Assembly (NCBI GenBank): GCA_964534465.1
Contig: CAZHOB010000001.1
Coordinates: 33,870-97,869, forward strand
Length of the DNA: 64,000 nt
Direction of reading: 5' to 3'
From: an uncultured Candidatus Saccharibacteria bacterium
GTDB taxonomy: Bacteria; Patescibacteriota; Minisyncoccia; Phycocordibacterales; UBA2100
The notes under the pieces were generated by a model, which did no database searches, was not told where the DNA came from, and saw nothing but the letters and a program-made list of their open reading frames with translations. The translations under genes and the position numbers were made by a program. Within the stretch, counting starts at the first letter, position 1. The number at the start of each line of letters is the position of its first letter. Shown here piece by piece: positions 3,025 through 61,220 of this stretch.

Positions 3025-4365
3025 ATGAACGTCATTACACGATTCCCCCCATCGCCGACAGGCTTTTTTCATATAGGCAGTGCTCGCACCGCGCTCTTCA
3101 ATTATCTGTTCGCCGCTCATCACGGCGGCACCATGTCCATGCGGTTCGAAGACACCGACACTGCGCGGAGCAAAAGGGAATTCGAGGACGATATTTTGGC
3201 GGGTCTCAAATGGCTCGGCATCGAGTATGAAATGCCAAAAGTCTTCCGCCAATCCGAAAAGACACATGACTATCGTAAATATCTGAAACAGCTGATCGAC
3301 TCCGGTCACGCATACGAAGCTGAGGCCGGCAAAGATGACCCCACCAAAAAAGTGATACGTTTCAAAAATCCCGATCTTCTGCTCGTATTTCACGATCTTA
3401 TCCGCGGCGAGATCTCTGTCGAAACAAAAGACCTCAGCGATTTCGTCATTGCCCGCAACATCGACGACCCACTCTACCATCTTTCCGTCGTAATAGACGA
3501 CCACGAAACAGGTGTCACGCATGTGATCCGCGGCGAAGACCATATATCAAACACGCCGCGCCAGATACTCATCCTCGAGGCCCTCGGCTTTCAGCGACCG
3601 CTCTACGCGCACATTCCACTCATTCTTGCGCCGGATCGCTCCAAGCTTTCCAAACGCCACGGTGCCGTCTCTATTAATGAGTATCGTGAGCAAGGTTTTC
3701 TGCCGCAGGCACTCGTCAATTACATCGCTCTTCTCGGGTGGAATTCGGGAGGAGAGAAGGAGCTCTTTTCCATGCAGGAGCTCATCCAGTCCTTCGACCT
3801 CGAGCAGGTCCAAAAAGGAGGTGCCATTTTCGATATCGAGAAGCTGAAGTGGTTCAATAAGGAGTATTTCAAAAAAATGCCGGAGCAGGAATTCGACGAG
3901 CAAGCGCTCGGTATCCTCAAAGACGCATGCACGAAAAGGAGCGGCTCTTTCAATGACGACGTCGCCAAAAAACTTCTTCCGATCATTCGCGAACGCATTT
4001 CCCTCTGGGGCGACATAAAGACCATGGTGGAGAATGGTGAACTGGATTATTTCTTTTACGATCCCCATCCCACTGCTGCCGAAATCCCGCAGAAGGGGAG
4101 TACCAAGGAGATCGCTTCCCTGCACCTCAAGGCAGCCCTCCAGCTGCTTGCTGAGATCGACTTTGCCGACGCTGAAACGATCAAAAAAACCCTGTGGGAT
4201 TACGCCACGGAAAAAGGGCGAGGAGAGGTGCTTTGGCCTCTTCGCTATTCACTTTCCGGCAAAGATCGCTCACCTGATCCATTCGTCATCGCCTCGATAA
4301 TAGGCAAGGAGGCCAGTCTCCGGCGCATCAGCGCGGCACTCATTAAATTGGCCTCCGGTGCATGA
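3025..4365 (+). CDS. gltX: Glutamyl-tRNA synthetase
   Basis: Class I aaRS motifs PPSPTGFFHIGSARTALFNY (HIGH) and KLSKRHG (KMSKS). Start moved to ATG 3025 to avoid overlapping murG. Confidence 0.9.
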   Translation: MNVITRFPPSPTGFFHIGSARTALFNYLFAAHHGGTMSMRFEDTDTARSKREFEDDILAGLKWLGIEYEMPKVFRQSEKTHDYRKYLKQLIDSGHAYEAEAGKDDPTKKVIRFKNPDLLLVFHDLIRGEISVETKDLSDFVIARNIDDPLYHLSVVIDDHETGVTHVIRGEDHISNTPRQILILEALGFQRPLYAHIPLILAPDRSKLSKRHGAVSINEYREQGFLPQALVNYIALLGWNSGGEKELFSMQELIQSFDLEQVQKGGAIFDIEKLKWFNKEYFKKMPEQEFDEQALGILKDACTKRSGSFNDDVAKKLLPIIRERISLWGDIKTMVENGELDYFFYDPHPTAAEIPQKGSTKEIASLHLKAALQLLAEIDFADAETIKKTLWDYATEKGRGEVLWPLRYSLSGKDRSPDPFVIASIIGKEASLRRISAALIKLASGA

Positions 4366-5645
4366 ACAGGTGGCTGACATACCCGGCCATCTTTGCCGTC
4401 TTGATAGCTCCGGCAATATCGTATTCGCAACAAGCGACATCGACCGTCGCGCAGTTGCAGCAGCAGATCGATGACCAGAGTACACAGATAAAGCAGCTTG
4501 ATGACGAGATCGCACAATACCAGGTCCAGCTAGATGAAACTTCAAGCAAAAAGCAAACGCTGCAGAACACCGTTACGCAATTGGCGCTTTCCATAAAAAA
4601 GACGACCGCTCAGGTAACCAAGACCAAGAGTCAGATCAAGACTACACAGCTTCAGATACAGGAACTTTCTCACAACATCGAAGGGAAGCAGGATTCCATC
4701 GATACCAATACTGATGCGCTCAAGGAGAGTGTTCGCAGGCTCGATGAAGTGGAATCAAAACCCCTCGCACAGTCGATGCTCTCGTCAGGTCGCATATCGG
4801 AGGCATGGGAGGACGCGGAAAATATCAGTACACTGCAAGCCGCCGTGCGCGACCATATCACTCAATTGTCCAAAGAAAAACAATCACTCGATGATACGAA
4901 GAAGGCTACGGAGGACAAAAAAACTCAACTCGTGCACCAGCAAAATACGCTGCTCGCACAACAAGGCTCGCTCAGCGCCACGAAAAATGCACAAACCGAT
5001 CTTCTCAAAGAGACCAAGAATCAGGAGTCCAACTTCCAATCCATACTTGAGCAAAAACGCGCGGCAAAAGCAGCCTTCGAACAAGCGCTCAACAATCTTC
5101 AGTCAAAGTTGCAGTACGCAGTGGATCTTTCGAAGGTTACGCCAGCCGGAAAGGGTGTTTTGCAATGGCCGCTTGATGTAGTGCGCATTACGCAGTATTT
5201 CGGCAACACGCCTTTCGCCCAATCCGGTGCGTACAATGGCAAGGGCCACAACGGTATCGATCTTGCGGCATCTATTGGCACGCCGGTCAAAGCGGCGCTC
5301 ACGGGCCAAGTGATAGGTACCGGCAACACCGATACCGCACGCGGCTGCTACTCGTTCGGCAAATGGGTCATGGTCAAACACGGCAATGGACTCAACACGA
5401 TGTACGCGCACCTCTCACAAATAAACGTAACGAGCGGCCAGATCGTCGGGACCGGCGAGGTCATCGGCTACAGCGGCGAAACCGGTTACGCGACCGGTCC
5501 GCACCTGCACTTCGGTGTCTACGTCTCGGCCGCCACGCAAATTTTGCGACTAGGGGATGCGACAGCCTCAAAAACACCCTGCGCTGACGCAGTCATGCCC
5601 GTAGTTCCGCTTTCAGGATACTTGAACCCAATGAGCTACTTGTAA
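4362..5645 (+). CDS. M23 family metallopeptidase with N-terminal coiled coil (EnvC-like murein hydrolase activator)
   Basis: Long Q/K/E-rich coiled coil followed by a C-terminal M23 domain (GIDLAA...HGNGLNTMYAHL...GETGYATGPHLHFGV). ATGA overlap with the gltX stop. Confidence 0.8.
   Translation: MNRWLTYPAIFAVLIAPAISYSQQATSTVAQLQQQIDDQSTQIKQLDDEIAQYQVQLDETSSKKQTLQNTVTQLALSIKKTTAQVTKTKSQIKTTQLQIQELSHNIEGKQDSIDTNTDALKESVRRLDEVESKPLAQSMLSSGRISEAWEDAENISTLQAAVRDHITQLSKEKQSLDDTKKATEDKKTQLVHQQNTLLAQQGSLSATKNAQTDLLKETKNQESNFQSILEQKRAAKAAFEQALNNLQSKLQYAVDLSKVTPAGKGVLQWPLDVVRITQYFGNTPFAQSGAYNGKGHNGIDLAASIGTPVKAALTGQVIGTGNTDTARGCYSFGKWVMVKHGNGLNTMYAHLSQINVTSGQIVGTGEVIGYSGETGYATGPHLHFGVYVSAATQILRLGDATASKTPCADAVMPVVPLSGYLNPMSYL
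5607..5638. repeat. 32-bp perfect direct repeat, copy 1 (3' end of the M23 peptidase gene); ~43 bp with 4 mismatches when extended to 5601-5643
   Basis: ccgctttcaggatacttgaacccaatgagcta is identical to 6921-6952. Confidence 0.9.
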
Positions 5646-5806
5646 AGACACCAACTCCCCCGAAATTAGCAAAAAATGTGGGCGAGACAGGCGACACGGC
5701 ACCCTTTAGCCGACAAATAAGCTCGCTCAATAGCGCACACGCGTCTTGTAAAACATGCAACATGTTGTATTCTGGCTTTGGTCTCGTTCTTTTGAAAGGA
5801 ACAATC

Positions 5807-6328
5807 ATGCCGCAGATCAAAGCTAGTGCCGGTACACCAAAAGTCCTCTCCACGAATCCTTTTCCCACAGATCCCGATCGTGCGGCCATCTGGACCATGC
5901 TCGTCGAGCGTGATATCGCGGCCTACGTGGCAGCGGATTGGTCGATGGTCGAGGATGACTTCATCGCCGATGAATTCATGGGCATCAGCGGCAATCGCGC
6001 CGACGATCCCGACAAATGGACCATCAGCTTTCCCTCGCTCGATGCATATCGCGACCTTTGGCTCGATGCAGCGCATGCGGGTCGGGGTGTCAGTTATGCC
6101 GAAGATTGGGAAGCCGGCATCCACCGGGCAACGAGCCTCACAGAGATCGAGATCGCCGGCGATCGTGCCATTGCGCATAAGAAGTTTAATGGTGAGATCA
6201 AGCGCTTTGATGGTGGCGTAGACAGGCTCAATTGGCAGACGCTGTATTTCTGCCGCAAGGTCGGCGGGCAATGGAAGCTGACGGGATTTGTGGGTTTTCT
6301 TCCGTATCCCATGGGCACGCAAGAATAA
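5807..6328 (+). CDS. SnoaL/NTF2-like fold hypothetical protein
   Basis: 173 aa from an ATG preceded by aaagga; W/D-rich pattern typical of NTF2-like/DUF4440 proteins; the call is tentative. Confidence 0.45.
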   Translation: MPQIKASAGTPKVLSTNPFPTDPDRAAIWTMLVERDIAAYVAADWSMVEDDFIADEFMGISGNRADDPDKWTISFPSLDAYRDLWLDAAHAGRGVSYAEDWEAGIHRATSLTEIEIAGDRAIAHKKFNGEIKRFDGGVDRLNWQTLYFCRKVGGQWKLTGFVGFLPYPMGTQE

Positions 6329-6421
6329 GTCAGTGTAAAAGGTATTTGGCTCCCATTACTCGGGAGCTTTCTTTTTTACGGCACATGCGTATAGTGACTG
6401 CAGCGAAATGGAGAATTAAAA

Positions 6422-6874
6422 ATGAAAATGAACTGGCTTATCCAGAGCTCTCTGAGCGTACCGTTGCTCATGATCGCATGGTTGTCGATCCGGTTTTTTC
6501 AGAAAAATCTTGGTGTTCCTGCGCCGGTTTTCCTGTTTTGGTATCTGGTCGGCGGCGCAATTATAGTGGGCCTGTATGTGCGATGGGTCGGTGAATCGCT
6601 TGCGCCATCGTGGGGAATGGTGGCCGCACTTTTGGTCATTGGCCTCACACTTTGCGGAGTAATAAACTTGCTCACCTTCACCGCAGCAGCGAACGCACCC
6701 AATCCGGGACTGCCGGTGGCAATTCAGAACACGACAAGCATATGCACATTTTTGATGGCCATCCTGCTCGCGTGGCTTGTGCCGGCCTACTTCACCGCTA
6801 CCCCGTTCGGCTGGAAAGATTTTGCGGGCATAGTATTTGTTGTCATCGGTGCCAGCTTGATCGCTGTACGTTAG
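6422..6874 (+). CDS. Small 4-TM membrane protein (EamA/DMT-like half transporter)
   Basis: 150 aa, four hydrophobic helices, no antisense gene with better support. Confidence 0.5.
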   Translation: MKMNWLIQSSLSVPLLMIAWLSIRFFQKNLGVPAPVFLFWYLVGGAIIVGLYVRWVGESLAPSWGMVAALLVIGLTLCGVINLLTFTAAANAPNPGLPVAIQNTTSICTFLMAILLAWLVPAYFTATPFGWKDFAGIVFVVIGASLIAVR

Positions 6875-6920
6875 GATATCTGGCTCCGCTTTATTGCGGA
6901 GCTTTTTGTTATGTTGATCA

Positions 6921-6952
6921 TGGCGTCGTCCCGCTTTCAGGATACTTGAACC
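6921..6952. repeat. 32-bp perfect direct repeat, copy 2, lying in an intergenic region
   Basis: Identical to 5607-5638. Re-creates the codons VPLSGYLNPMSYL of the M23 gene C-terminus outside any real gene. Confidence 0.9.
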
Positions 6953-7040
6953 CAATGAGCTATTTATGGAGCAGATTGATTCTGGACGCGACCTGTGGCA
7001 TAACGAATACAGTTCTTTAACATTGCGATAAGGTGAAACA

Positions 7041-7649
7041 ATGCGAAAAGTCACACTGACACTCGACTACAAGCCCCTTGAGAAGCTTGTTGAACTTATA
7101 GACGAACCCAACAGGTCTGCCTGTCACAAACTCTTGCGAGATAATCGGGCGCTTTTCGAAAGTACCCGTGGCTCGACATACAACCATCAGATATGGCCGG
7201 GGGGTTACATCGACCACATCACGGACGGCATGAATTATGCGGATCATTTATACGACTTCGATGCGTCCTTCGGCCGACCGCTGCCATTTTCCAAATCCGA
7301 CGCGCTGCTGGCATTCTTCTTGCATGATCTCGAAAAACCCTGGGCGTTCGGGGTAAATGAGAAAGGCGAGCCCATACGACTACCGGGATTTGACACAAAG
7401 CCCGCCATGCAAGAATTTCGCGAAGAGAAAATTGCGGCCTATGGCTTCGAGCTGACCCCGTATCAGGAGAACGGATATAAATACGCCGAGGGCGAACTCA
7501 ACGACTATTCGCCCAAACGTCGCGTCATGAATGAACTGGCGTCATTTGTACACAAAATTGACAATTGGTCCGCCCGCGGATGGTACAACTACCCAAAGGC
7601 AGAAGGCGATGAGTGGATCGGTGCTAAAAGATTTCGCAGCTCTGATTGA
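7041..7649 (+). CDS. HD-domain phosphohydrolase
   Basis: H...HD motif (HQIWPGGYIDH ... LLAFFLHDLEKP). Confidence 0.6.
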   Translation: MRKVTLTLDYKPLEKLVELIDEPNRSACHKLLRDNRALFESTRGSTYNHQIWPGGYIDHITDGMNYADHLYDFDASFGRPLPFSKSDALLAFFLHDLEKPWAFGVNEKGEPIRLPGFDTKPAMQEFREEKIAAYGFELTPYQENGYKYAEGELNDYSPKRRVMNELASFVHKIDNWSARGWYNYPKAEGDEWIGAKRFRSSD

Positions 7650-7656
7650 AGTACTG

Positions 7657-7690
7657 GCCCCGGAGACCAACTCTGGGGCTTTTATATATT
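7657..7690 (+). terminator. Rho-independent terminator after the HD-domain gene
   Basis: GCCCCGGAG-ACCAA-CTCTGGGGC followed by TTTTATATATT. Confidence 0.6.
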
Positions 7691-7761
7691 CATGGAGGGT
7701 CTGTCTCCCCCGAATGGCCGTAAAAATCGGGGAGTTACGAGCCGAGATAGGGCGTAAATAC

Positions 7762-7790
7762 AAGCCGAGCTGCCGAGCTCGGATTTTTTT
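7762..7790 (+). terminator. Second hairpin plus T-tract (CCGAGCT-GCCG-AGCTCGG ATTTTTTTT)
   Basis: 7-bp stem followed by T8; lies about 100 nt downstream of the first terminator with no annotated gene between them. Confidence 0.5.
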
Positions 7791-7881
7791 TGAGCGACAA
7801 ATATTTTGGGGAGACGAGCCACGCGCAGCGGGGAGGCATCCTAGAAGGTGAAGGTGTCGCACACCGATAAGTCTCCAGCGG

Positions 7882-7926
7882 CCTTAGATTGTGCGAAGAC
7901 CAATGAGGGCTTTGCACAATCTAAGG
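7882..7926. repeat. 45-nt near-perfect palindrome (16-17 bp stem)
   Basis: CCTTAGATTGTGCGAAG-ACCAATGAGGG-CTTTGCACAATCTAAGG. Confidence 0.8.
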
Positions 7927-7927
7927 G

Positions 7928-7967
7928 ATCTTTTGCGACATTTTGCATGGCATGATGTCGCAAAAGA
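7928..7967. repeat. 40-nt perfect palindrome (14 bp stem)
   Basis: ATCTTTTGCGACAT-TTTGCATGGCATG-ATGTCGCAAAAGAT, immediately adjacent to the previous palindrome. Confidence 0.8.
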
Positions 7968-8168
7968 TATATTGTGCGACGATACGTAATATTACAACAT
8001 GAAGTTATCCACATATCATCTCGCCACGCCGACACACATTGTCAAGTCCTCTACGGCTCTTGCTTCTGACGTATGAAATATTTTTCCGGCGCTTGTTTTT
8101 TTATGTCGTGTGAAAGTCGGTTCGCCGTCTCTCTTCCCCTGCCCCACGAGGGGTATACCCTAAAAAAG

Positions 8169-8774
8169 CTACTTCACTTTCCAAGGAATTTCGTATTGCT
8201 GAAATTCCGGCAACAATTTTCTTCCGTACAAAAGCCTTGAAATAACTTCCGCATGCGAGAGCGCGCCGGTCATAGCATTGTGTGGAGACGGTTCCTTTGG
8301 GATACCGGTGTAGTTGAGAACGGCATCGAGATTGAGAGCCGACCGACGATGCGATACAGGGGGCTGGATGCCGTGATTGACCATATGCATATAGCAGAGC
8401 GTGTGCGTGTCGATGGTGCGATGCGCGAACGGCCAATCGGTGTGCTTAGCCCTTTCCGCCGCCGCTTTCAAAAAATCTCTGTCAAACGATACGTTCTGGC
8501 CGGCGAATGTGCGCTCCTCTACCCCCTCGCTCCATTGTAGGAAAAGGTGAGTCAGTTCTCCTTCTGAAATTTTCCTCGGATCTGTGATCTCCTCTTTCGT
8601 GAAGCCATTGACTTCCATTGCTTCGTCCATTATGTGCGCACCATCCCAGATATGACACTCTTCATAAAAGCGGTTGGAAGGATCGGCAAAATCGAGCGCT
8701 CCCACGCTCACGATGGAGTGCTTGGAATACTCCGTGCCCGAAGCTTCTACATCAAGGACGATCATAGGGCACAT
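8169..8774 (-). CDS. DEDDh 3'-5' exonuclease (DnaQ/oligoribonuclease-like)
   Basis: Exo motifs IVLDVEASG ... [13 protein letters not shown] ... [12 protein letters not shown]. Start set at Met101 of the 301-aa ORF because the upstream part is antisense to rpmA. Confidence 0.6.
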
Positions 8775-8853
8775 TGTAGCCTCGATAGGCGGCCCTACCA
8801 AGCCCCAAAACAGATGCTTGCAGCACTTTCCCAAATACTGTATAGTGTCGCCC

Positions 8854-9132
8854 ATGGCAACAACGAAAGCCGGCGGGTCAGCTAAAAACCTCAACGATTC
8901 AAATCCGAAGTACCTCGGCGTGAAGCGTGCCGACGGACAAAAGGTGGAGATCGGGGAGATCATCGTGCGCCAGCGCGGCACGCTCATCATGCCGGGTCGC
9001 AATATCGGCGTCGGTAAAGACCACACACTTTTTGCGCGCATCGCAGGCAAGGTCAGATTCCGCTCTGTTCGCAAATCAGATTTCGACGGTCGGTCAAATC
9101 GCCGCCGCCTCGTGGAAGTCTTGAAAGCTTAA
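8854..9132 (+). CDS. rpmA: 50S ribosomal protein L27
   Basis: [12 protein letters not shown]...[23 protein letters not shown]...[14 protein letters not shown] matches the L27 consensus. Confidence 0.85.
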
Positions 9133-9140
9133 GTGCTTAT

Positions 9141-9587
9141 CTAAGCCGCCTCTATAGAAACCGTTACGGTTGCTTCGGCCTCATCGCTGAGCAGGCGAAA
9201 TTTGTATTCTCCGACGTCTTTGATGGCATCGCTCTCACCCACAATAAACTCCGGCCGTATCGCGCTGCCGGCATCTCGCTGAAGCGCCACCGCTATCTCT
9301 TCCCTTTGGATGCCCTTGAACAAGTGGCCCTTTTCGTTGGCACGCACGCGGATGGTGATCTTTTTTCCGTCCAATTTTTTCAATGCCTCGTTCGACTCTT
9401 TTGCATTTGCGACCTTCAATGTCGACTCATGTTTTAGTTTCTTCTGGAGTGAGTTCAGCTTCTCCGGTGTGGCCTGCACGGCGAAGCCGTTGGGGATCAG
9501 GTGATTGAGCGCGTAGCCGTCAGCTACTTCTTTGACCGTATCCCGCTGCCCTACCCCGCGCACATCTCTGATAAGAACAACTTTCAT
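9141..9587 (-). CDS. rplI: 50S ribosomal protein L9
   Basis: MKVVLIRDVRGVGQRDTVKEVADGYALNHLIPNGFAV N-terminal domain. Confidence 0.8.
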   Translation of the reverse strand: MKVVLIRDVRGVGQRDTVKEVADGYALNHLIPNGFAVQATPEKLNSLQKKLKHESTLKVANAKESNEALKKLDGKKITIRVRANEKGHLFKGIQREEIAVALQRDAGSAIRPEFIVGESDAIKDVGEYKFRLLSDEAEATVTVSIEAA

Positions 9588-9588
9588 A

Positions 9589-10887
9589 TTATTGATTCTT
9601 CAAAATACTGACGGCTTTGTCCAACTGTGGATCTTTACCCGCCTTGTGCTCGTCGTCAGATATTTCGACTTTTACCGTGGGAGCAATACCCTCGCGCGGG
9701 ATCTGTATGCCATCAGGACCAAGCCAACGTGCTACCGTTATCTTGAGCGAGGTTTCCGGCGTTATGTCGACAAGCTCCTGTACAGAGCCCTTTCCGAACG
9801 TATTGACGCCCACAAGTTTGGCTACGCCATAGTACCGCAGTGCGTCTGCGAGGATTTCAGACGCCGACGCCGAACCCTTGTCGACAAGTATCACCATTTT
9901 CAGATTTTTATTGAACACATTGTAGCCGAGCGAGCGGTGCACGATGTTCTGGTCGTGACCAGCATAATCCTCCGTAACGACGGGCGAGCCGGTGGGCAAG
10001 AACCAACTCGCCATGTCGACTGCAGCTTCAAGATAGCCGCCAGGATTGCCACGAAGGTCCAGGATGAGTTTTGTATCGCCCGATTCGACGAATTCGCGGA
10101 GTGCGGAACGGAAGAGCTCGGGTGAATTTGACGTAAATGTCAGCACTTGAATATCAAAAATACCGTCGGGGCGCGCCGTCGTGGACACCGTCGGAATATT
10201 GATGACGTCACGCGTTACCTTTATCTCTTTGACCGCGGTCCACCCTTCACGATAAACAGTGAATGTCACCTTGCTTCCTTTTGGGCCGCGGATCTTCTTC
10301 ACAGCCTCACTCGCATCCATCCCTTTGGTATCCACACCATCTATCTTGAGCAAAGCATCACCGGCCTTAAGCCCCGATTTCTCTGCGGGCGTACCTTTGA
10401 GCGGCGAGACGACCGTAAGCACTTGATCTTTGACTGCGATCTCCATGCCTACTCCCTCAAATGCACCGCTCATGTCGGCATTGAATTGTTCGTTCTCGAC
10501 GGGCGGCAGGAAATAGGTGTAAGGGTCGTTGAGAGAAGCAGCGAGACCTTCGATCATCCCCCACACGCGCTGTTGATCGGCATCCTTTGTAGAAGTGGCC
10601 ATCTTGGTTGATGTGGCCACGGCAGCAGGGACGAACTTTTCATCAATAATATGCCACGCTTTCCAGACTGGCGAGAGATCGACGTTTTGCGGGACGCTCG
10701 TATCGCCGGAGAAGGCTCCCATCGGCTTCGTAGCTGAATAGCCCGCCACATAGGCGCCAATTACCAAAATAATGCCGGCAATGATTGCGCGGCGCAGCGG
10801 TATAGTTTTTTCGCGCTTTTCCGGGAACATCGGAGAGATTATCTCACGCTCGTTATCGTCCCGCAAAAGAGCCCCGTTTTGATGCAT
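9589..10887 (-). CDS. ctp: Carboxyl-terminal processing protease (S41 family, PDZ domain)
   Basis: N-terminal TM anchor, PDZ domain, S41 core (GNPGGYLEAAVDMASWF...). Confidence 0.85.
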   Translation of the reverse strand: MHQNGALLRDDNEREIISPMFPEKREKTIPLRRAIIAGIILVIGAYVAGYSATKPMGAFSGDTSVPQNVDLSPVWKAWHIIDEKFVPAAVATSTKMATSTKDADQQRVWGMIEGLAASLNDPYTYFLPPVENEQFNADMSGAFEGVGMEIAVKDQVLTVVSPLKGTPAEKSGLKAGDALLKIDGVDTKGMDASEAVKKIRGPKGSKVTFTVYREGWTAVKEIKVTRDVINIPTVSTTARPDGIFDIQVLTFTSNSPELFRSALREFVESGDTKLILDLRGNPGGYLEAAVDMASWFLPTGSPVVTEDYAGHDQNIVHRSLGYNVFNKNLKMVILVDKGSASASEILADALRYYGVAKLVGVNTFGKGSVQELVDITPETSLKITVARWLGPDGIQIPREGIAPTVKVEISDDEHKAGKDPQLDKAVSILKNQ

Positions 10888-11858: not shown

Positions 11859-13325
11859 ATGGGTGTCTTCGATTGGTTCACACGTACGGGTGAGAAGCGT
11901 TCACCGCTGTATCTTTTCAACACGTTAGGCGGTAAGAAGGAAAAATTCGTGCCCGTACACGACAGTGAGGTGCGCATGTACAACTGCGGCCCTACCGTGT
12001 ACGGTCGCCAGCACATCGGCAATCTTTCTATGTTCGTTTTTACGGACATTGTGAGACGAACACTTATAAGGAGTGGCTACTCGGTAAAGCAAGTCATCAA
12101 TTTCACCGATTTCGGTCATCTCACGTCGGACGCCGATTCCGGCGAGGACAAGATGACCAAGGGTCTCAAGAGCGAGGGTCTCGCGCTCACTATGGAAAAC
12201 ATGCGTGCGCTCGGCGAAAAATACGCCAATCTTTTTCTCGAAGATCTCCGCGCGCTCAATTGCGACATCGACGGCATCATTTTCCCCCGTGCGAGCGACT
12301 ACGTGCAGGCACAGATCGCGATGATAGAGACACTCGTCGAGAAGGGTTTCGCCTATCAGGGCAAACATGGCGTCTATTTTGAGACTTCCAAATTTCCGCG
12401 CTACGGAAAGCTCGGAAATATCAATCTCGAAGAATTACGCGCTGGCGCGCGCGTCTCTTTCGATAAAGAGAAGCGCGGTCAACTCGATTTTTTACTCTGG
12501 AAGTCTGATCCGCACATGGGTTGGGATTCACCATGGGGCAAGGGCTTTCCGGGATGGCACATCGAGTGCTCGGCGATGATACGCGAGACGCTCGGCGAGC
12601 AGATAGACATCCATACCGGCGGCATCGAACACATACCCGTGCACCACAACAACGAGATAGCGCAGTCGGAGAGCGCGACAGGCAAACATCCGTTCTCTAA
12701 ATACTGGCTCCACCGCGCACATATTCAGCTCGAGGGCGGCAAGATAGCCAAATCAGTGGGTAATGTCGTGTACATGTTCGATGTTACCGAACGCGGCTGC
12801 CACCCACTATCACTCCGCTATCTATTCCTGAGTGCGCACTATCGCACACCGATGAACTTCACGTGGGAGGCTCTCTCTGCCGCCCAGACGGCGTATTCCA
12901 AACTGCTGGCAATGCGATTTGCGCACAAACCCTCATTTCCCGTCCGAAAGTGGACTGAAAAATTCAACAAACACGTCAACGACGATTTCGATACTCCGAA
13001 AGCGATTGCCGTCCTCTGGGAAATGACGAAGGATACTTCACTTACCGAGGGCGAAAAAGTCGCAACCATGATAGAGATGGACAAAGTGCTCGGTCTCAAT
13101 TTCGCCGAACCCGATGCAGCTGCAAGGGAGCTCGCACGCAAAGAGCTCCGCACGGCCATACCTAAGGAGAAAATAGACGCCAAGATCAAGGAGCTGCTCT
13201 TGGAGAGGCAACGCGCCCGTGAAAATAAAGACTACGCCCGCGCTGACGCCATTCGAACTCGTATCGAAGACCAGGGCTTTGAACTCGACGACTCCCCTTC
13301 CGGACCCGTACTCTACACCCGCTAA
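11859..13325 (+). CDS. cysS: Cysteinyl-tRNA synthetase
   Basis: MYNCGPTVYGRQHIGN (HIGH), zinc ligands, KIAKSVGN (KMSKS). Confidence 0.9.
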   Translation: MGVFDWFTRTGEKRSPLYLFNTLGGKKEKFVPVHDSEVRMYNCGPTVYGRQHIGNLSMFVFTDIVRRTLIRSGYSVKQVINFTDFGHLTSDADSGEDKMTKGLKSEGLALTMENMRALGEKYANLFLEDLRALNCDIDGIIFPRASDYVQAQIAMIETLVEKGFAYQGKHGVYFETSKFPRYGKLGNINLEELRAGARVSFDKEKRGQLDFLLWKSDPHMGWDSPWGKGFPGWHIECSAMIRETLGEQIDIHTGGIEHIPVHHNNEIAQSESATGKHPFSKYWLHRAHIQLEGGKIAKSVGNVVYMFDVTERGCHPLSLRYLFLSAHYRTPMNFTWEALSAAQTAYSKLLAMRFAHKPSFPVRKWTEKFNKHVNDDFDTPKAIAVLWEMTKDTSLTEGEKVATMIEMDKVLGLNFAEPDAAARELARKELRTAIPKEKIDAKIKELLLERQRARENKDYARADAIRTRIEDQGFELDDSPSGPVLYTR

Positions 13326-16300
13326 GCGCCTACAACGAAATTGACGAGACGGCCCGGCACGACGATCGTGCGAGCTATTTTTTGCCCCTCAAGACGCGCG
13401 GATACAGCTTCGCGCGCCGCCGCTTCGATAGCAGCCTTGTCGGAATCTTTTGAGACATCCACAGTGGCGCGGGTCTTGCCGTCGATCTGCACAGCGATAG
13501 TGATCGTATTTTCTACCAATTGCGAAATGTCGAATTCCGGCCATTTTTCGAGGTGGATGGACTTCTTTTTGCCCCATAATTCTTCGGCCACATGAGGGGC
13601 GAACGGCGAGAGGATCTTGAGAAAAGTTGACCACTCGTCGGGCGAAATTGCCTTCGCTTTTTCTATCGCGTTGAGCAGTATCATCATCTGACTGATGGCG
13701 GTATTGAATTTCATCTGTTCGATGTCCTTCCCCACTTTCTGTACCGTCTTGTGGAGTGCAGAACCGATGCTTGGCGCGTTTTTTGAGACGAGTTCCTGCA
13801 CGCGGCACACACGCTCCAAAAATCGACGCACACCGACCACGCCATCCGGATTCCACGGATAACTGGACACTTCGTGATACGGGCCGATAAAGGCCAAATA
13901 CATGCGTACGGTGTCAGCTCCGAGTCTCTCCACCACCTCATCAGGATCGATGACATTGCCGCGCGATTTGCTCATTTTTTGGCCATCTGGACCTAGAATG
14001 AGCGAACGATTTATTCTCCGCGCGTAGGGCTCTTCGTTCTCTACAAGTCCGAGATCGAAAAGAGCCTTTTGCCAGAACCGCGAATACAGAAGGTGCATCG
14101 TGGTGTGCTCGGCACCGCCTGAATAGAGGCTAACCGGCATCCAGTTCTGAATGCTTTTCTTGGCGGCGAATTCTTTTTTATTTTTGGGATCGGTGTAGCG
14201 CAAGAAATACCACGAGGAATCGACGAAGGTGTCGAGTGTATCAGTCTCACGTTTCGCGACACCTTTGCACAGCGGGCATTTTACATTGACCCACTTCGTG
14301 GCTTTCGCCAGCGGCGATTTGCCGCTGCCTTCGGGCAGATAATCCTTCACGGCAGGCAACTCGACAGGCAGATCTTTATCCGGCACTGGCTGCGCGCCAC
14401 ATTCAGGACAATGAATGATCGGTATCGGCACACCCCAGTATCTTTGGCGCGACACGATCCAATCGCGGAGTCTGAAGGTGGTCTTTTTGCGTCCGAATAC
14501 GTCGGTAATCGCTGCATTGGCTTCGGCGGAAGTCTTGCCGTCGTAAAGACCGGAGTTGATGAGAAAGCCGTCGCCGGTGTAGCTGTAATGGGGGTCTTGA
14601 ATGACGGAAGCGATGAACTCGCCCTCGAAAACGGTGAAGAATTCCATTAACTTATTTTTCTTGACCCAGACCACCTCGTGAAGTGATGCCTCCTTTTCAT
14701 CCACCGCATCCTTCTCGTCATTCTCGAGCTCAAAAAAGACGAAGTGGAAATGAGCGTGACGATTCTGCTTTTTGACACGGTGATAGAAGAAGGTGTTTAT
14801 TGTCCACTTGTGATTTTCGACATGGCGAAGATTTTTGTACCCTGTCTCCTCGTGAATTTCTCGGCGGGCAGTTTCGATGATGTCGTCATCTCCCTCGATG
14901 CCGCCGGTCACAAGACCGTGCATGTGGACGCCTCTCCATTTAATTGCGAGATAGGTGTCGTCCTTGGGATTGCGCACAACGGCGCATATGGCTTCCCTTT
15001 TGATGAATGGCTCGCCTTCTTTGATGGCATTTTCGCGGGTTCCGTTCGCTTTGAAGATCGGTTCGATGACATGCTTGATCGGCAGGCCAAATTTGCGGGC
15101 AAAGGCGTGATCGCGCTCGTCGTGCGCGGGCACTGCCATGATGGCCCCGGTGCCGTAGGAGGCGAGCACATAATCCGCTACATACATGGGGATTTTCTCA
15201 CCCGTCGCGGGATTGACGGCATCCACGCCCTCAAGCCGCACGCCGGTCTTGTCTTTTTGGTCGGTCATGCGTTCGAGCTCGGTCTTCTTAGTGGCCTGCG
15301 TGACATACGCAGAGACATGCTGCTCATTAGGCAAAAGACTTTTGTGACCGAGTGCCGCTTTTAACCACGGATGTTCGGGCGATAGGACAAGGTAAGTGGC
15401 ACCGAAGAGCGTATCGGGGCGCGTCGTGAAAACGCGGATAGTGGCGCGCAGCCACATCAAGACATCGGGCTCTGTGTCGCCCGTAAAGTGCGGCTTATTG
15501 GATATGCCGCGATGCGCTTTGATGCCGAGGAGCTTCTCGAGATCCGCGACTTGCCTCTCCGATATCGCATGGTCGCATGGATCATGAAGTAGCTGAATTA
15601 CCGGAGCGGTGGCGTGGATTTTTTTCGCATCGAACTCCCATTTGAAATCCTTCGCGAAATCACGCGGCCCGTCTTTGAAATGAGGGTCAGCAAAGCCTCC
15701 CACAAGGACAAGGCGGCTTATCTGTGACTTGAGACGCTCGACGACTTTCATTGCGACTACAGCGCCCAGACTATGTCCCATAAGGACAGTGTTTTCGTCG
15801 TAATCAGTGGCTTGAAGTGCTGCTTCGACCTGTTCTACTTCCGTGGGATTGTCAGTATTTGGCAGGGTGGGAATAATGACCTCATTGCCCATTTTTTCAA
15901 GCTCACTCTTTATCCAATTCCAGCGTGGAGTGTCGGGCTTACCGCCATAACCGTGCAAAATGACGTATTTGTTTTTTTTGCCAAAATCGAGAGGAAAATC
16001 AATTTCAGCCCCCTCCGAACGGCCGATCCAGTTACGCTGCGATTCTTTGATCTGTTCAGGCCAATCGAGAGTTGTGAGGTCGTCTATAAGGCGATCGGCG
16101 TAGCTGGTGATCATTACGTTCCATTGCAACATCATTCTTTGCTCAACAACCGAGCCGCAACGTTCGCAGCGGCCATCCACCACCTGCTCATTGGCAAGCA
16201 CTGTCTTGTCTTTCGGACACCAATTCACTGCAGTTTCCTTTTGATACGCCAAACCTTTTTTGAAAAGCTGAAGGAATTGCCACTGCGTCCATTTGTAGTA

Positions 16301-16711
16301 AGCGGGGTCGGCGGTAATGACCTCGCGCGACCAATCGAACGAGGTGCCCATCGACTCGATCTGCTTTTTCATGTACGCGATGTTGCCGAAGGTCCACTTT
16401 TTGGGATCCAATTTATTCTTTATCGCGGCATTCTCTGCGGGCAATCCAAATGCATCGAATCCCATGGGATAGAGCACATTTTTGCCGTCCATCCGTTTCT
16501 TGCGCGCGAGAATATCCGGCACTGCGAAAGCGTACCAGTGTCCTACGTGCAAATTGCCCGACGGATATGGGAACTCGACGAGCAGGTAGAAATTGTCCTT
16601 GCCTTTTACGCTGTCGGGAGTCTTGTGCAAACCGTCCTTTTTCCATTTGGCCTGCCATTTTTTCTCGATTTTCTTGTGGTCGTATCCGTGCATCAAGACA
16701 GCGTAGCACAA
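13322..16711 (-). CDS. leuS: Leucyl-tRNA synthetase carrying two inserted hydrolase domains (alpha/beta serine hydrolase and Nudix)
   Basis: HIGH motif (PYPSGNLHVGHWYAF), WIGRSEGAEIDF, TTRPDT editing motif, GTGAIMAVPAHDERD, KMSKS (GQKMSKSRGNV). Single uninterrupted 1129-aa frame, roughly 270 aa longer than a typical bacterial LeuRS. Confidence 0.9.
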   Translation of the reverse strand: MCYAVLMHGYDHKKIEKKWQAKWKKDGLHKTPDSVKGKDNFYLLVEFPYPSGNLHVGHWYAFAVPDILARKKRMDGKNVLYPMGFDAFGLPAENAAIKNKLDPKKWTFGNIAYMKKQIESMGTSFDWSREVITADPAYYKWTQWQFLQLFKKGLAYQKETAVNWCPKDKTVLANEQVVDGRCERCGSVVEQRMMLQWNVMITSYADRLIDDLTTLDWPEQIKESQRNWIGRSEGAEIDFPLDFGKKNKYVILHGYGGKPDTPRWNWIKSELEKMGNEVIIPTLPNTDNPTEVEQVEAALQATDYDENTVLMGHSLGAVVAMKVVERLKSQISRLVLVGGFADPHFKDGPRDFAKDFKWEFDAKKIHATAPVIQLLHDPCDHAISERQVADLEKLLGIKAHRGISNKPHFTGDTEPDVLMWLRATIRVFTTRPDTLFGATYLVLSPEHPWLKAALGHKSLLPNEQHVSAYVTQATKKTELERMTDQKDKTGVRLEGVDAVNPATGEKIPMYVADYVLASYGTGAIMAVPAHDERDHAFARKFGLPIKHVIEPIFKANGTRENAIKEGEPFIKREAICAVVRNPKDDTYLAIKWRGVHMHGLVTGGIEGDDDIIETARREIHEETGYKNLRHVENHKWTINTFFYHRVKKQNRHAHFHFVFFELENDEKDAVDEKEASLHEVVWVKKNKLMEFFTVFEGEFIASVIQDPHYSYTGDGFLINSGLYDGKTSAEANAAITDVFGRKKTTFRLRDWIVSRQRYWGVPIPIIHCPECGAQPVPDKDLPVELPAVKDYLPEGSGKSPLAKATKWVNVKCPLCKGVAKRETDTLDTFVDSSWYFLRYTDPKNKKEFAAKKSIQNWMPVSLYSGGAEHTTMHLLYSRFWQKALFDLGLVENEEPYARRINRSLILGPDGQKMSKSRGNVIDPDEVVERLGADTVRMYLAFIGPYHEVSSYPWNPDGVVGVRRFLERVCRVQELVSKNAPSIGSALHKTVQKVGKDIEQMKFNTAISQMMILLNAIEKAKAISPDEWSTFLKILSPFAPHVAEELWGKKKSIHLEKWPEFDISQLVENTITIAVQIDGKTRATVDVSKDSDKAAIEAAAREAVSARLEGQKIARTIVVPGRLVNFVVGA

Positions 16712-37693: not shown

Positions 37694-37704
37694 TTACCAC
37701 AATA

Positions 37705-37742
37705 ATTAAAAAGAATCAGCCGCCCCGAGCATACGGGGCGGC
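37705..37742 (-). terminator. Rho-independent terminator (GCCGCCCCG-hairpin followed by TGATTCTTTTT on the minus strand)
   Basis: 9-bp GC stem followed by a T-tract, directly downstream of the gene at 37750-38379. Confidence 0.65.
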
Positions 37743-37749
37743 TGCATTG

Positions 37750-38379
37750 TCATTTCGGGTACAACCCTGCCGGATCGCAATCGCTGAGCGTGCCGTCGAG
37801 GCGAAACCAGCGCATCGCGAGTGTATCTCCGCCGCCGTTGTCGCCCTCACCATAGAGATATTGCACGTGATACATACTCTCTGTATCACGGAACAACGTT
37901 CTCCACAGAAAAAGACTGTTGGCGCCGAATACTTCGCGGAAGACGGCGGCTCCCAGCTTTTGAATGGCGACGCCGTCCGCGGTCGAAAGACAGTACTGCA
38001 GCTTGTCCTTTTCGATGAGCTGCTCATGTATATAACGAGCGCTCACGTCCCTTCCCAGCTTTTGACCGGGTGCACGCCACAAGCGTACTTTTGCGAGGTC
38101 GTAGCGAGCAGGGCGATCGGGCGCGCAATGATGATGCTCCGAACACATCACCCATGAAGGAGGGCGGGGAGGCAGGACATTTCGAGTATCCACTATGCGT
38201 TCTGCGGGCGGCGGCCGTTCGCTGACAACGAGTTCCCCGCGCTTGACGCGAAGAAGTTTCGCGAACGTATTGCCCTCGCAGGCCTCATCGACGTCCTTGT
38301 GCGTCCAGCCCCCTCGGGCCAAGGCATTGTCTACCTTGCCCCAGAGTCCAAAACCGGCACCGAGCGTAAATTCGCTCAT
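37750..38379 (-). CDS. Hypothetical protein
   Basis: 209 aa with no recognised motif. Confidence 0.4.
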   Translation of the reverse strand: MSEFTLGAGFGLWGKVDNALARGGWTHKDVDEACEGNTFAKLLRVKRGELVVSERPPPAERIVDTRNVLPPRPPSWVMCSEHHHCAPDRPARYDLAKVRLWRAPGQKLGRDVSARYIHEQLIEKDKLQYCLSTADGVAIQKLGAAVFREVFGANSLFLWRTLFRDTESMYHVQYLYGEGDNGGGDTLAMRWFRLDGTLSDCDPAGLYPK

Positions 38380-38484
38380 AGCGAATCTCCTTTTTGACAG
38401 ATCGTCCGGATAGAACGACAGTCATCACCAGAGGGCTCCTTCGGAATGAAGGCTACCGTGGTCTGCGCATGTTGTACCACAAAT

Positions 38485-38521
38485 ATCAAAAAGAATCAGC
38501 CGCCGCGTCAGACGCGGCGGC
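38485..38521 (-). terminator. Rho-independent terminator (GCCGCCGCGTC-hairpin followed by TGATTCTTTTT on the minus strand)
   Basis: Same tail as the terminator at 37705-37742; downstream of the small gene ending at 38528. Confidence 0.6.
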
Positions 38522-38527
38522 CGTCAA

Positions 38528-44551: not shown

Positions 44552-44587
44552 GCCAATTTGGCAAAAAATCGAGCCATGACCCTACGG
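44552..44587. repeat. Direct repeat copy Y (includes the genuine tRNA-Glu 3' end)
   Basis: See the copy at 43109-43139. Confidence 0.75.
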
Positions 44588-44648
44588 GGAATCGAACCCC
44601 GGTTTTAGCCTTGAGAAGGCCACGTCCTAGCCGCTAGACGATAGGGCC
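44577..44648 (-). tRNA. tRNA-Glu (anticodon CUC)
   Basis: Hand-folded cloverleaf: acceptor GGCCCTA/TAGGGTC, D-stem GTCT/GGAC, anticodon stem TGGCC/GGCTA with loop TTCTCAA, T-arm CGGGG-TTCGATT-CCCCG, discriminator A, no encoded CCA. Confidence 0.8.
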
Positions 44649-44698
44649 GTCTGCGAAAGTGTACCGAATAACATGCAACATTTCCACCCCCTTTCAGA

Positions 44699-44730
44699 TA
44701 CTCTCACATTCTTAAGAATATGAGAGTGTT
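44699..44730. promoter_or_regulatory. 30-bp palindrome downstream of the ArsR-family gene (1 mismatch)
   Basis: ACTCTCACATTCTTAAGAATATGAGAGTG. Confidence 0.6.
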
Positions 44731-45036
44731 CTACTCGGCATTTGAGAAGGAGTGGATAAAGGCATAAAAGATGCAGCCGTAAGGAGTCAGTCGGTGGCGC
44801 ACTTCCCTTCCCGCGTAAGCTTTCTCTACAAGTCCGGCCAACGTGAGGCGCCGCACATGCTCGGATGTCGTCTTAAAATTGGTATTCGCGGCATCTGCGA
44901 TATCAAATAGACCGATGTCCGGATTTTTTGCGATCAGGATAAGCATTTGGATGCGACGGTGATTCGCAACGCCTTTGAAATGCCTCTCCAACTTCTTCGG
45001 GCCTTTAACTTTTTTCTCCGACTCCATCATCGCCAC
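44731..45036 (-). CDS. ArsR/SmtB-family HTH transcriptional regulator
   Basis: HFKGVANHRRIQMLILIAKNPDIGLFDIA ... SEHVRRLTLAGLV wHTH; GTG start. Confidence 0.75.
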   Translation of the reverse strand: MAMMESEKKVKGPKKLERHFKGVANHRRIQMLILIAKNPDIGLFDIADAANTNFKTTSEHVRRLTLAGLVEKAYAGREVRHRLTPYGCIFYAFIHSFSNAE

Positions 45037-45068
45037 ATACTCTCACATTCTTAAGAATGTGAGAGTGT
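45037..45068. promoter_or_regulatory. 30-bp perfect palindrome immediately upstream of the ArsR-family gene (putative operator)
   Basis: ACACTCTCACATTCTTAAGAATGTGAGAGTGT. Confidence 0.65.
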
Positions 45069-45124
45069 TTTTCATGGTGTAATACTGTTCGGTATTTTAC
45101 GCCAATTGATGGGGGGTGGGGATG

Positions 45125-60335: not shown

Positions 60336-61220
60336 TTATTGCGTGACATGTGACCATGCCTGGAGCATAAAGTCACGCGCACGAGCTGGTGTTCGCGGTG
60401 TATTTCCCCTGAATAACCATTTAAGATCGCTCACCTCGGCGTAGTCATTCGCGACATTAGCGTTATCCATGTCGTCATAAACCTTATCCAGTACCGCGAG
60501 GGCGATGTCGCGGTATGAGCGATCCCCCGCGAAGGTATCGGGAGGAACATTCCAGATAAGACATTCGATGAAAAACGATGGCATATCCCCGCCGCGCAGA
60601 AGCCCTTTGTCCTTAAGGTCGTTGCGAAGATTTTTGAATATGCGTACCACCGACTTGAATCGGCGCGATGTGCTCTCGTTTTTGGCTATGCCGTTATCGT
60701 AATGCTGCTCCGGATAGCTATAGATCGTCTGGTTGTCGTCTGTAATGAGGCCGATGCCTTCGGCGGCAGATACACCAAATGAGCGATATCGGGTATGGGG
60801 AAAAGCAGGCACAACGTCGGCATGAACTCGTGTTGAGCTACCTCCGACACGAACGCATTTATTTTTTCTTTCGACACCACCGAACTCTTCGCGAAGAACG
60901 TTATACACTTCGGCCTTGAACTGAGGGAAGGTGTATGTAGCGGGACTCGAGACACTCTTATGCAGCTCCTTGTCCGCCGGCGTCAACGCAGAAATGTCCG
61001 GAAAATAAGTCGCATCGTGAATGACTGCGAGGTCCACATCGCTATCGAGACGGATGTTCGTGCGGTTGTGATGCGATCCCTGGCGGATGAAGGAAATGCG
61101 GTCGCCGAAGTGTGATCGGAGCGCCTCGCTGATATCGCTTATGGCATTAGTGCATCTTTCGCTCTCCGTCTCGCTCGGAGGGTTTGCCCATCTTGTTATT
61201 TGGTCGTTGTTTATACTCAT
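60336..61220 (-). CDS. cGAS/DncV-like nucleotidyltransferase (CD-NTase / SMODS-like)
   Basis: SFIRQGSHHNRTNIRLDSDVDLAVI (GS ... [DE]h[DE]h) plus third acidic motif VHADVVPAF; 294 aa with a helical C-terminal domain. Confidence 0.65.
   Translation of the reverse strand: MSINNDQITRWANPPSETESERCTNAISDISEALRSHFGDRISFIRQGSHHNRTNIRLDSDVDLAVIHDATYFPDISALTPADKELHKSVSSPATYTFPQFKAEVYNVLREEFGGVERKNKCVRVGGSSTRVHADVVPAFPHTRYRSFGVSAAEGIGLITDDNQTIYSYPEQHYDNGIAKNESTSRRFKSVVRIFKNLRNDLKDKGLLRGGDMPSFFIECLIWNVPPDTFAGDRSYRDIALAVLDKVYDDMDNANVANDYAEVSDLKWLFRGNTPRTPARARDFMLQAWSHVTQ

Follow-up and report, generated by a model that had tools for sequence, protein, structure and literature searches.

The locus described here raises the question of how the 3′ end of one gene came to be present twice, on both sides of a short piece of acquired DNA. 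It is located in a stretch of 64,000 nt (hereafter, the window) of contig CAZHOB010000001.1, assembled from an uncultured Candidatus Saccharibacteria bacterium (GCA_964534465.1). A gene coding for an M23 peptidase is followed there by a 1.3-kb insert with two genes, orfA (NTF2/SnoaL-like) and orfB (EamA-like), and by a second copy of the M23 gene end, beyond which lies orfC, an HD-domain-like gene. A preliminary description of this DNA took the two copies for the attL/attR-like footprint of site-specific integration into a gene terminus, or for that of a cassette exchanged by recombination at the repeat. In our opinion, the arrangement is likely the scar of a recombinational import from a related genome. 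More specifically, and with a confidence only somewhat above even, we read the second copy as the product of a Campbell-type import at the edge of a variable islet, that is, as a recombination scar and not a working element. The footprint is a fairly ordinary one of a known kind and does not represent a new kind of mobile element.

The Repeat Pair

The core of the duplication is a 32-nt perfect direct repeat, CCGCTTTCAGGATACTTGAACCCAATGAGCTA. When other copies were sought in the window, none was found beyond these two, even with three mismatches permitted. The repeat is far beyond chance, as indicated by the lack of matches to the 32-mer in 100 shuffles and by an expectation of ~1e-10 such repeats in 64 kb. 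It is also the longest perfect direct repeat detected across the whole window and, among the loci compared, it is present only in this genome. The first core copy lies at 5607-5638, exactly as described before. The second one lies at 6931-6962 and not at 6921-6952, so that its earlier coordinates were off by 10. The start-to-start spacing of 1324 nt corresponds to the insert plus one repeat unit. The similarity extends beyond the core: the ungapped alignment comprises 42 nt with 93% identity (5600-5641 vs 6924-6965), and with one 1-nt gap it reaches ~49 nt (5593-5641 vs 6918-6965) and a score of 35, the background being 10-14.5. The only symmetry within the core is a trivial 6-bp imperfect palindrome, and for this reason a dif-like site was rejected.

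A repeat of this kind might also appear in a chimeric contig in which the assembler threaded two strains, or a chromosome and a small circle, through the shared 32-mer. The contig is indeed metagenome-assembled, and the k=31 Logan graph breaks at the core, where contig L001 (run SRR8931233) begins; from 6933 onward, it is 100% identical to the window. However, a start at 6933 is an obligatory branch of the k=31 graph if the core has two different right flanks, which indicates that both right-hand contexts are present in the reads of SRR8931233. Two right flanks in one read set, as judged from this Logan contig, fit the integrated form. Moreover, the left flank of the second copy is continuous with the terminator of orfB via unique sequence, and hence this flank and the core must lie downstream of orfB. 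Common assemblers finish with k above 32, which counts against an artefact as well. We regard this origin of the repeat as highly improbable.

Two Alleles of the M23 Gene End

The first copy encodes the C-terminus of the M23 protein, as the preliminary description had claimed. This C-terminus (...MPVVPLSGYLNPMSYL*, which includes VMPVVPLSGYLNPMSYL) is conserved throughout the family. The second copy proved to be non-coding, again in agreement with the earlier claim, and represents a decayed M23 end devoid of a stop codon. This relic reads I-M-(1-nt deletion)-V-V-P-L-S-G-Y-L-N-P-M-S-Y-L, and then TGG in place of the stop. Judging from the 1-nt deletion and the lost stop codon, the relic appears to have begun decaying. 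Its left edge is abrupt and is located directly after the T-run of T2, the terminator of orfB.

The two copies share 14 codons, which differ by four substitutions (GTA/GTC, GTT/GTC, TAC/TAT, and TTG/TTA). All four are synonymous. The synonymous share of random changes in these codons is 23%, which gives P ~0.003 for four out of four. Their placement is also non-random: the core has nine wobble sites and none of them is changed, whereas all four that lie beyond it are (P ~0.0014). Synonymous-only substitutions indicate that, prior to their joining, each of the copies had evolved as a coding end of M23. The two copies thus represent different alleles of a functional M23 terminus that were joined at an identical tract, and not a duplication that drifted in place.

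A duplication in place, either a transposon-like target-site duplication or a tandem duplication with a deletion, followed by later drift, would likewise produce a direct repeat flanking the insert. Nevertheless, target-site duplications are short and perfect, and they are accompanied by terminal inverted repeats and a transposase. Here, the repeat is 32-49 nt long with imperfect flanks, and neither inverted termini nor a transposase were found. Drift of non-coding DNA would also be expected neither to be restricted to synonymous changes (P ~0.003) nor to avoid the core. This makes a duplication in place the least credible origin, with hardly any probability left to it.

The Variable Interval Downstream of the M23 Gene

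To collect related loci, the M23 protein was used as the query in scans of the JGI metagenomes and of 185,579 genomes of species representatives. These yielded 45 genome loci and 33 metagenome loci, all of them from Paceibacteria/Kaiserbacteria-type Patescibacteria. The nearest relatives are ~62% identical over the full-length protein, and two C-terminal fragments show 68% and 76% identity. No strain-level relative of the source lineage was found in the collections scanned. Exact-protein look-ups returned no record for the M23 protein or the products of orfA and orfB, and only a 1.5-kb Logan contig for orfC.

The conserved gene order is FtsW-MurG-GluRS-M23-(gap)-exonuclease(-)-L27(+)-L9(-)-CtpA(-)-CorA-CysRS, and the FtsW-MurG-GluRS-M23 synteny is kept in the 78 related loci. 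The M23 gene forms the conserved left border of a variable islet, and the exonuclease gene forms its conserved right border. The gap between them ranges from ~1 to 8.5 kb among the relatives and differs in gene content. In none of the 78 loci are orfA, orfB, or orfC encoded near M23. A second copy of the M23 end is also absent from all 78, in which a degenerate pattern of this end occurs once per locus, and the M23-end alignment score is 35 in the window versus 10-14.5 in the 45 relatives. The empty site that follows from the preliminary description (M23 followed by the HD-like gene) was not seen in any relative, even the nearest of which are only ~62% identical over the full-length M23.

Directly after the M23 gene, a convergent gene was present in 18 of 18 relatives that have an M23 identity of at least 57% and available downstream sequence. 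It codes for ~200-235 aa (218 aa in L002, 11302-11958 (-)), and it has no Pfam match. In L002-L004, L054, L055, and L075, its stop codon overlaps that of M23 by ~10 nt. A tblastn search of the whole 64-kb window with the L002 copy gave nothing at E <= 1e-3, and the ancestral neighbour of M23 has thus been lost or replaced in this genome. A relic of this neighbour after the repeat was also considered and rejected, given the negative tblastn result and the minus-strand translations of 6956-7060, which by eye are unlike the C-termini of the relatives' proteins. The 218-aa antisense open reading frame (ORF) at 5666-6322 equals the neighbour gene of the relatives in length by coincidence, and the two are not homologous.

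Origin of the Inserted Genes

The product of orfA has no Pfam or NCBIfam match. Its AlphaFold model (AF2, alignment of 23 sequences) has a pLDDT of 93, and Foldseek assigned it with a probability of 1.0 to structures of the NTF2/SnoaL/ketosteroid-isomerase fold. The search for homologues yielded 407 proteins, the best of which shows ~78% amino acid identity, with up to 81% over the aligned part. The named homologues all belong to Devosia, Pelagibacterium, or Youhaiella (Devosiaceae), with the addition of one from Pseudoxanthomonas. In a neighbour-joining tree, orfA of the window is nested within this set. The DNA identity is 74-75% and is confined to the coding sequence. In Devosiaceae, the gene is part of a fixed chromosomal operon, in which a divergent GFO/IDH gene is followed by orfA and the genes of an MFS transporter, MlrC, and DeoR. 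Matches of the insert to plasmids were found for orfA only (64-68%), in Rhizobiales plasmid records that are mostly replicons of 1.6-2.8 Mb.

The GC content at third codon positions (GC3) of orfA is 0.63, compared with 0.58-0.69 in the native genes and 0.72-0.76 in the Devosiaceae homologues. Its phylogenetic position and composition show orfA to be an old cross-phylum acquisition from Devosiaceae-like Alphaproteobacteria that has been ameliorated to the local composition. Its native-like GC3 argues for a long residence in a genome of similar composition before the insertion event. Because the gene is already ameliorated, it is at most a weak pointer to a past physical association with Devosiaceae-like bacteria.

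The product of orfB gave a Pfam EamA match (E=0.017) that is below the cut-off and spans the whole domain. In a word-indexed search, it matched only itself. An exhaustive HMMER search revealed 135 representative homologues of ~150 aa with 25-53% identity, some of which are halves of proteins of 318-345 aa; the family is sparse. One homologue (43-44% amino acid identity) is encoded in a small-genome contig from groundwater, which also encodes FtsH, NusA, and H+-pyrophosphatase. We also considered whether orfB is a truncated form of the MFS gene located downstream of orfA in Devosiaceae, and this was rejected as no similarity was found. The labels given earlier to the three genes (NTF2/SnoaL, EamA-like, and HD-domain) are right at the level of fold or family, and none of them is a curated Pfam match.

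Search for Mobility Genes

No integrase, transposase, or Xer gene was found in the insert, within 5 kb on either side of it, or among 30 large ORFs of the window, which code for housekeeping or unknown proteins. A tblastn search with an Xer-type query gave no match. No recombinase was present among seven of the largest gap ORFs of the related loci L006, L007, L011, and L017, examined together with the neighbour gene of L002; the products of the gap ORFs are a DUF5667 protein, a methyltransferase, a rhodanese-type protein, and similar ones. A degenerate pattern of the core had no match in viral contigs, and the insert had no phage match. A cognate autonomous element using the same site was not found in genome, metagenome, or viral collections at reachable distance. 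As to an integron cassette, no integrase is present in the window, and T1 and T2, the terminators of orfA and orfB, are plain GC-stem and T-run terminators, as judged without a dedicated attC model.

These results bear primarily on the possibility of a non-autonomous integrative element, in the form of a degraded island or something like a cis-mobilizable element (CIME). The core would then be an att site in the 3′ end of the M23 gene, served in trans by a tyrosine or serine recombinase. Such elements have well-known counterparts. SCCmec at rlmH/orfX, SGI1 at trmE, and the integrative and conjugative elements (ICEs) ICESt1 and ICESt3 at fda integrate into the 3′ end of a housekeeping gene and restore the gene end, and CIMEs are integrase-less derivatives of such islands or ICEs. 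The likeness, which concerns their general architecture and not a comparison of sequences, consists of direct repeats with an identical core, a left repeat that serves as the functional gene end, a cargo of unrelated accessory genes and, as in the CIME state, the lack of an integrase. In the locus under study, direct repeats do flank the insert, the left one completes the M23 gene, and the flanks of the perfect core are diverged and homologous. The non-random placement of the differences (P ~0.0014) also fits a defined core.

The differences are, however, considerable. The insert holds only the NTF2-fold and EamA-like genes, and no recombinase was found in it, nearby, among the 30 large ORFs of the window, or among the seven gap ORFs of the relatives. 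No reuse of the site was seen in the 78 related loci, even the nearest of which are only ~62% identical over the full-length M23. In comparison with islands and ICEs, the insert is tiny (1.3 kb, two genes of different origins), and its cargo is composite, with orfA derived from a fixed operon of Devosiaceae and orfB having a homologue in the groundwater contig. Viral-contig and phage matches are lacking, plasmid matches are confined to orfA, and the sequence that follows the relic differs from the ancestral neighbour gene. We consider a CIME-like origin to be improbable. The anatomy is attL/attR-like, as the preliminary description had it, and consists of a perfect core with diverged, homologous flanks that differ only synonymously, while the claim of site-specific integration is left unsupported: no recombinase was found, no reuse of the site was seen, and the cargo is composite and immobile-looking. 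What holds is that the DNA bracketed by the duplicated gene end was acquired, and the arrangement has no sensible source other than recombination at the M23 terminus.

A more speculative variant, to which we assign very little probability, is that the 32-nt M23 end is a true attachment site in some Patescibacteria. It would be used by integrase-less mini-cassettes, with the recombinase encoded elsewhere (e.g., a housekeeping Xer or an unsampled element). In such a case, the pairs of similar terminators around orfB and around a 209-aa gene (37750-38379) would be other traces of this traffic in short-repeat cassettes.

Proposed Import by Homologous Recombination

The Campbell-type import that we favour could have proceeded as follows. 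The donor would be a related Patescibacteria genome, with orfA and orfB located after its M23 gene. The imported piece would comprise the last ~16 codons of the donor M23 gene, orfA, orfB, and T2, and natural transformation would be the likely route of its entry. Crossover with the resident M23 terminus would take place inside the 32-nt tract that is identical between the two alleles. The simplest route to a bracketing duplication would be a single (Campbell-type) crossover of a circularized fragment. After such a crossover, the M23 gene would keep an intact end on the left, and the redundant end would be displaced to the right, where decay has since begun. The anatomy of the repeat, the allelic divergence of its flanks, the foreign origin of orfA, the variability of the islet, the loss of the ancestral neighbour gene, and the lack of recombinase genes in the searches described above are shown directly, and the donor, the circular intermediate, and the crossover position are what we infer.

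Several observations are consistent with these steps. The duplicated segment constitutes the shared homology, it is in direct orientation, and it brackets the entire insert. Both copies keep the same 14 codons, and four out of four substitutions between them are synonymous, as is expected of two alleles. A crossover confined to the identity tract would leave wobble differences only outside the core, as was observed. The relic starts abruptly after the orfB terminator, a position that fits a novel joint of the imported DNA. That orfA is ameliorated and that a homologue of orfB occurs in a small-genome contig from groundwater would both fit a donor among related Patescibacteria. The variable length and gene content of the M23-exonuclease interval and the lack of recombinase genes in the searches also speak for this reading. 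The M23 terminus may have served as the site because strong sequence conservation ends there, at the left edge of the hypervariable M23-exonuclease islet. In terms of length, 32 nt is close to the minimal efficient segment for RecA-dependent recombination.

Both the mechanism and the route have precedents. In Escherichia coli, a single crossover of circularized molecules duplicated part of a gene end, giving lacZ-end duplications (PMC3240628). The com genes are conserved across Patescibacteria, and natural transformation with homologous integration has been demonstrated for Saccharibacteria (PMC10633639). Most of the inferred horizontal gene transfer into Patescibacteria comes from other Patescibacteria (PMC12455944). 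The locus resembles Campbell-type integration of a suicide plasmid and the lacZ-end duplications (PMC3240628) in that direct copies of a gene end bracket the insert, one copy keeps the gene intact, the other is redundant, and no dedicated recombinase is needed. It differs from the E. coli experiments, in which 109-950 bp of homology were used (PMC3240628), by having a perfect match of 32 nt and a total of ~49 nt. In addition, the event in this genome would be a natural one, old enough for the relic to have decayed, and its circular intermediate is a conjectural one.

Some points weigh against a Campbell-type import. Neither a donor nor an empty site or a circular junction was observed, and with the nearest M23 relatives only ~62% identical over the full-length protein, the history is rebuilt from a single sequence. 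A crossover in the core would imply that the M23 protein had a 17-aa extension (YLWSRLILD...) before the insertion, unless the stop codon of the relic decayed later, and no relative's M23 carries such an extension. A homology of 32-49 nt is a poor substrate for RecA-dependent recombination. Finally, a site-specific recombinase would equally leave a sharply bounded perfect core.

Another route would involve a linear donor fragment, acting through homology-facilitated illegitimate recombination (HFIR) or in a two-step event, with the left anchor in or upstream of M23 and an illegitimate right joint ~16 codons before the stop codon. The first copy would then be wholly derived from the donor and the relic wholly from the recipient, the 32-nt identity being mere conservation. 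The abrupt left edge of the relic after a T-run resembles an illegitimate joint, the synonymous differences fit a donor and a recipient allele, and competence is known in the phylum. As in HFIR during natural transformation, foreign DNA would be located beside a homologous anchor with an illegitimate far joint, which is plausible in a competent phylum. In contrast to this locus, where a duplication was found, HFIR was expected to delete recipient DNA, and it was single crossovers of circular molecules that gave rise to the duplications in E. coli (PMC3240628). The avoidance of the core by wobble differences (P ~0.0014) would be left unexplained. The same segment of the recipient would also have to be used twice, which seems topologically awkward for strand replacement. 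We regard a linear fragment as unlikely, if still the most serious competitor of a circular one.

The locus can also be compared with replacement-type flexible genomic islets, which are bounded by conserved core genes and exchanged by homologous recombination in the flanks. The M23-exonuclease interval is similar in that it varies in genes and length (~1 to 8.5 kb) between syntenic flanks. It is different in that clean recombination in the flanks leaves no scar, whereas here an imprecise event would have duplicated a gene end.

The footprint is a clean and dated record of how an ultra-small, episymbiont-type genome gains genes. The accessory genes lie at one edge of a variable islet, which is delimited by core genes of the cell envelope and the ribosome, and for recombination a very short tract of identity was apparently sufficient. 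For orfA, this is one more case of cross-phylum gene flow into the under-studied Patescibacteria. Current concepts are not changed by these results, and the value of the locus lies mainly in being an annotated example with a searchable junction pair.

Genes and Terminators of the Interval

The features of the locus are listed in Table 1. Between the two copies of the repeat, the order is leader, orfA, T1, orfB, and T2, and the relic is followed by orfC and T3. M23 is not followed by a terminator. In the leader of orfA, a candidate promoter (TTGTAA-N16-TATTCT) was read by eye; it was not called by the consensus scan and it overlaps a small palindrome at 5755-5770.

Table 1. Features of the M23-exonuclease interval in the window.
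Feature	Position	Strand	Description or evidence
M23 peptidase gene	4362..5645	+	427 aa, coiled-coil N-terminus and M23 domain; Pfam Peptidase_M23 E=2e-28
Repeat copy 1	5593..5641	+	Functional last 16 codons of M23, VMPVVPLSGYLNPMSYL; perfect core 5607-5638
Leader of orfA	5646..5806	+	Intergenic, 160 nt; sequence
orfA	5807..6328	+	173 aa, NTF2/SnoaL/ketosteroid-isomerase fold; homologues, AF2 model, Foldseek
Terminator T1	6348..6368	+	Intrinsic, after orfA; stem GGCTCC...GGAGCT and T-run; folding z = -4.5
orfB	6422..6874	+	150 aa, four-helix membrane protein like a half-size EamA/DMT transporter; Pfam and HMMER homologues
Terminator T2	6882..6903	+	Intrinsic, after orfB; like T1; folding z = -4.8
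Repeat copy 2	6918..6965	+	Non-coding relic of the M23 3′ end; perfect core 6931-6962
orfC	7041..7649	+	202 aa, HD-domain-like; homologues, AF2 model
Terminator T3	7656..7680	+	Intrinsic, after orfC; folding z = -3.7
RNase T/DEDD-type exonuclease gene	8169..8765	-	Pfam RNase_T; position conserved in relatives

The hairpins of T1, T2, and T3 fold far better than their shuffles. The regions of T1 and T2 with their flanks (6339-6390 vs 6872-6926) are alike, with an alignment z of 7.1, and they contain the sole two GGCTCC-N-GGAGCT hairpins in 64 kb. A similar pair of terminators thus brackets orfB. An older, third copy of the M23 end downstream of T1, which would point to serial accretion, was rejected, as its alignment score was no better than that of shuffles (p = 0.8).

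The search with the product of orfC gave 653 homologues, and identity among the 120 listed was 60-80%. Few of the homologues are named, and all of these are from Patescibacteria except one. The AF2 model has a pLDDT of 79, and its best structural match is the HD-domain exoribonuclease YhaM (E=3.8e-4, TM 0.63). The genomic context of orfC varies: the two homologues examined (80% and 70% identical) are located in other contexts and not beside M23, the first of them after a gene read as MutY-like.

Between orfC and the exonuclease gene, there is a non-coding stretch of ~480 nt (7690-8168). It contains a terminator-like hairpin that is bidirectional (7765-7782) and two near-perfect palindromes next to each other (7882-7926 and 7928-7968). 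The stretch had no Rfam match, and an Rfam scan of 5000-9600 gave nothing meaningful. The 301-aa exonuclease ORF (8169-9074, -) is over-extended, and its real start is near 8765. Over the first ~74-100 residues, the ORF runs antisense to the gene for ribosomal protein L27 (8854-9132, +), and this part looks conserved in tblastn only because L27 is conserved.

Other Features of the Window

A second pair of direct repeats was found at 37696-37747 and 38476-38526 (~52 nt, ~85% identity, alignment z = 20.8). Each of them consists of a minus-strand terminator hairpin and its flank, and the two hairpins differ by a compensatory change in the stem (CCCCG/CGGGG vs CCGCG/CGCGG). The repeats bracket one gene coding for 209 aa (37750-38379, -), which has no Pfam match and lies just upstream of a gene read as SAH-hydrolase. 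This gene may be another single-gene insertion flanked by short repeats.

A 294-aa ORF at 60336-61220 (-) showed a weak match, below the cut-off, to SMODS nucleotidyltransferase (E = 4e-5) and may be a fragment of a defence system. At 13322-16711 (-), the window encodes a leucyl-tRNA synthetase of 1129 aa with an unusual architecture, in which the editing domain apparently lies between two insertions, an alpha/beta-hydrolase domain (~residues 249-425) and a NUDIX domain (~residues 572-691). Finally, two 36-nt palindromic copies with a ACTCTCACATTCTTAAGAATGTGAGAGT core are present at 44677-45089, between the gene for tRNA-Glu (44577-44648, -) and a Mur-ligase gene. They are 94% identical and 339 nt apart, and they could be operators or the footprint of a small element.

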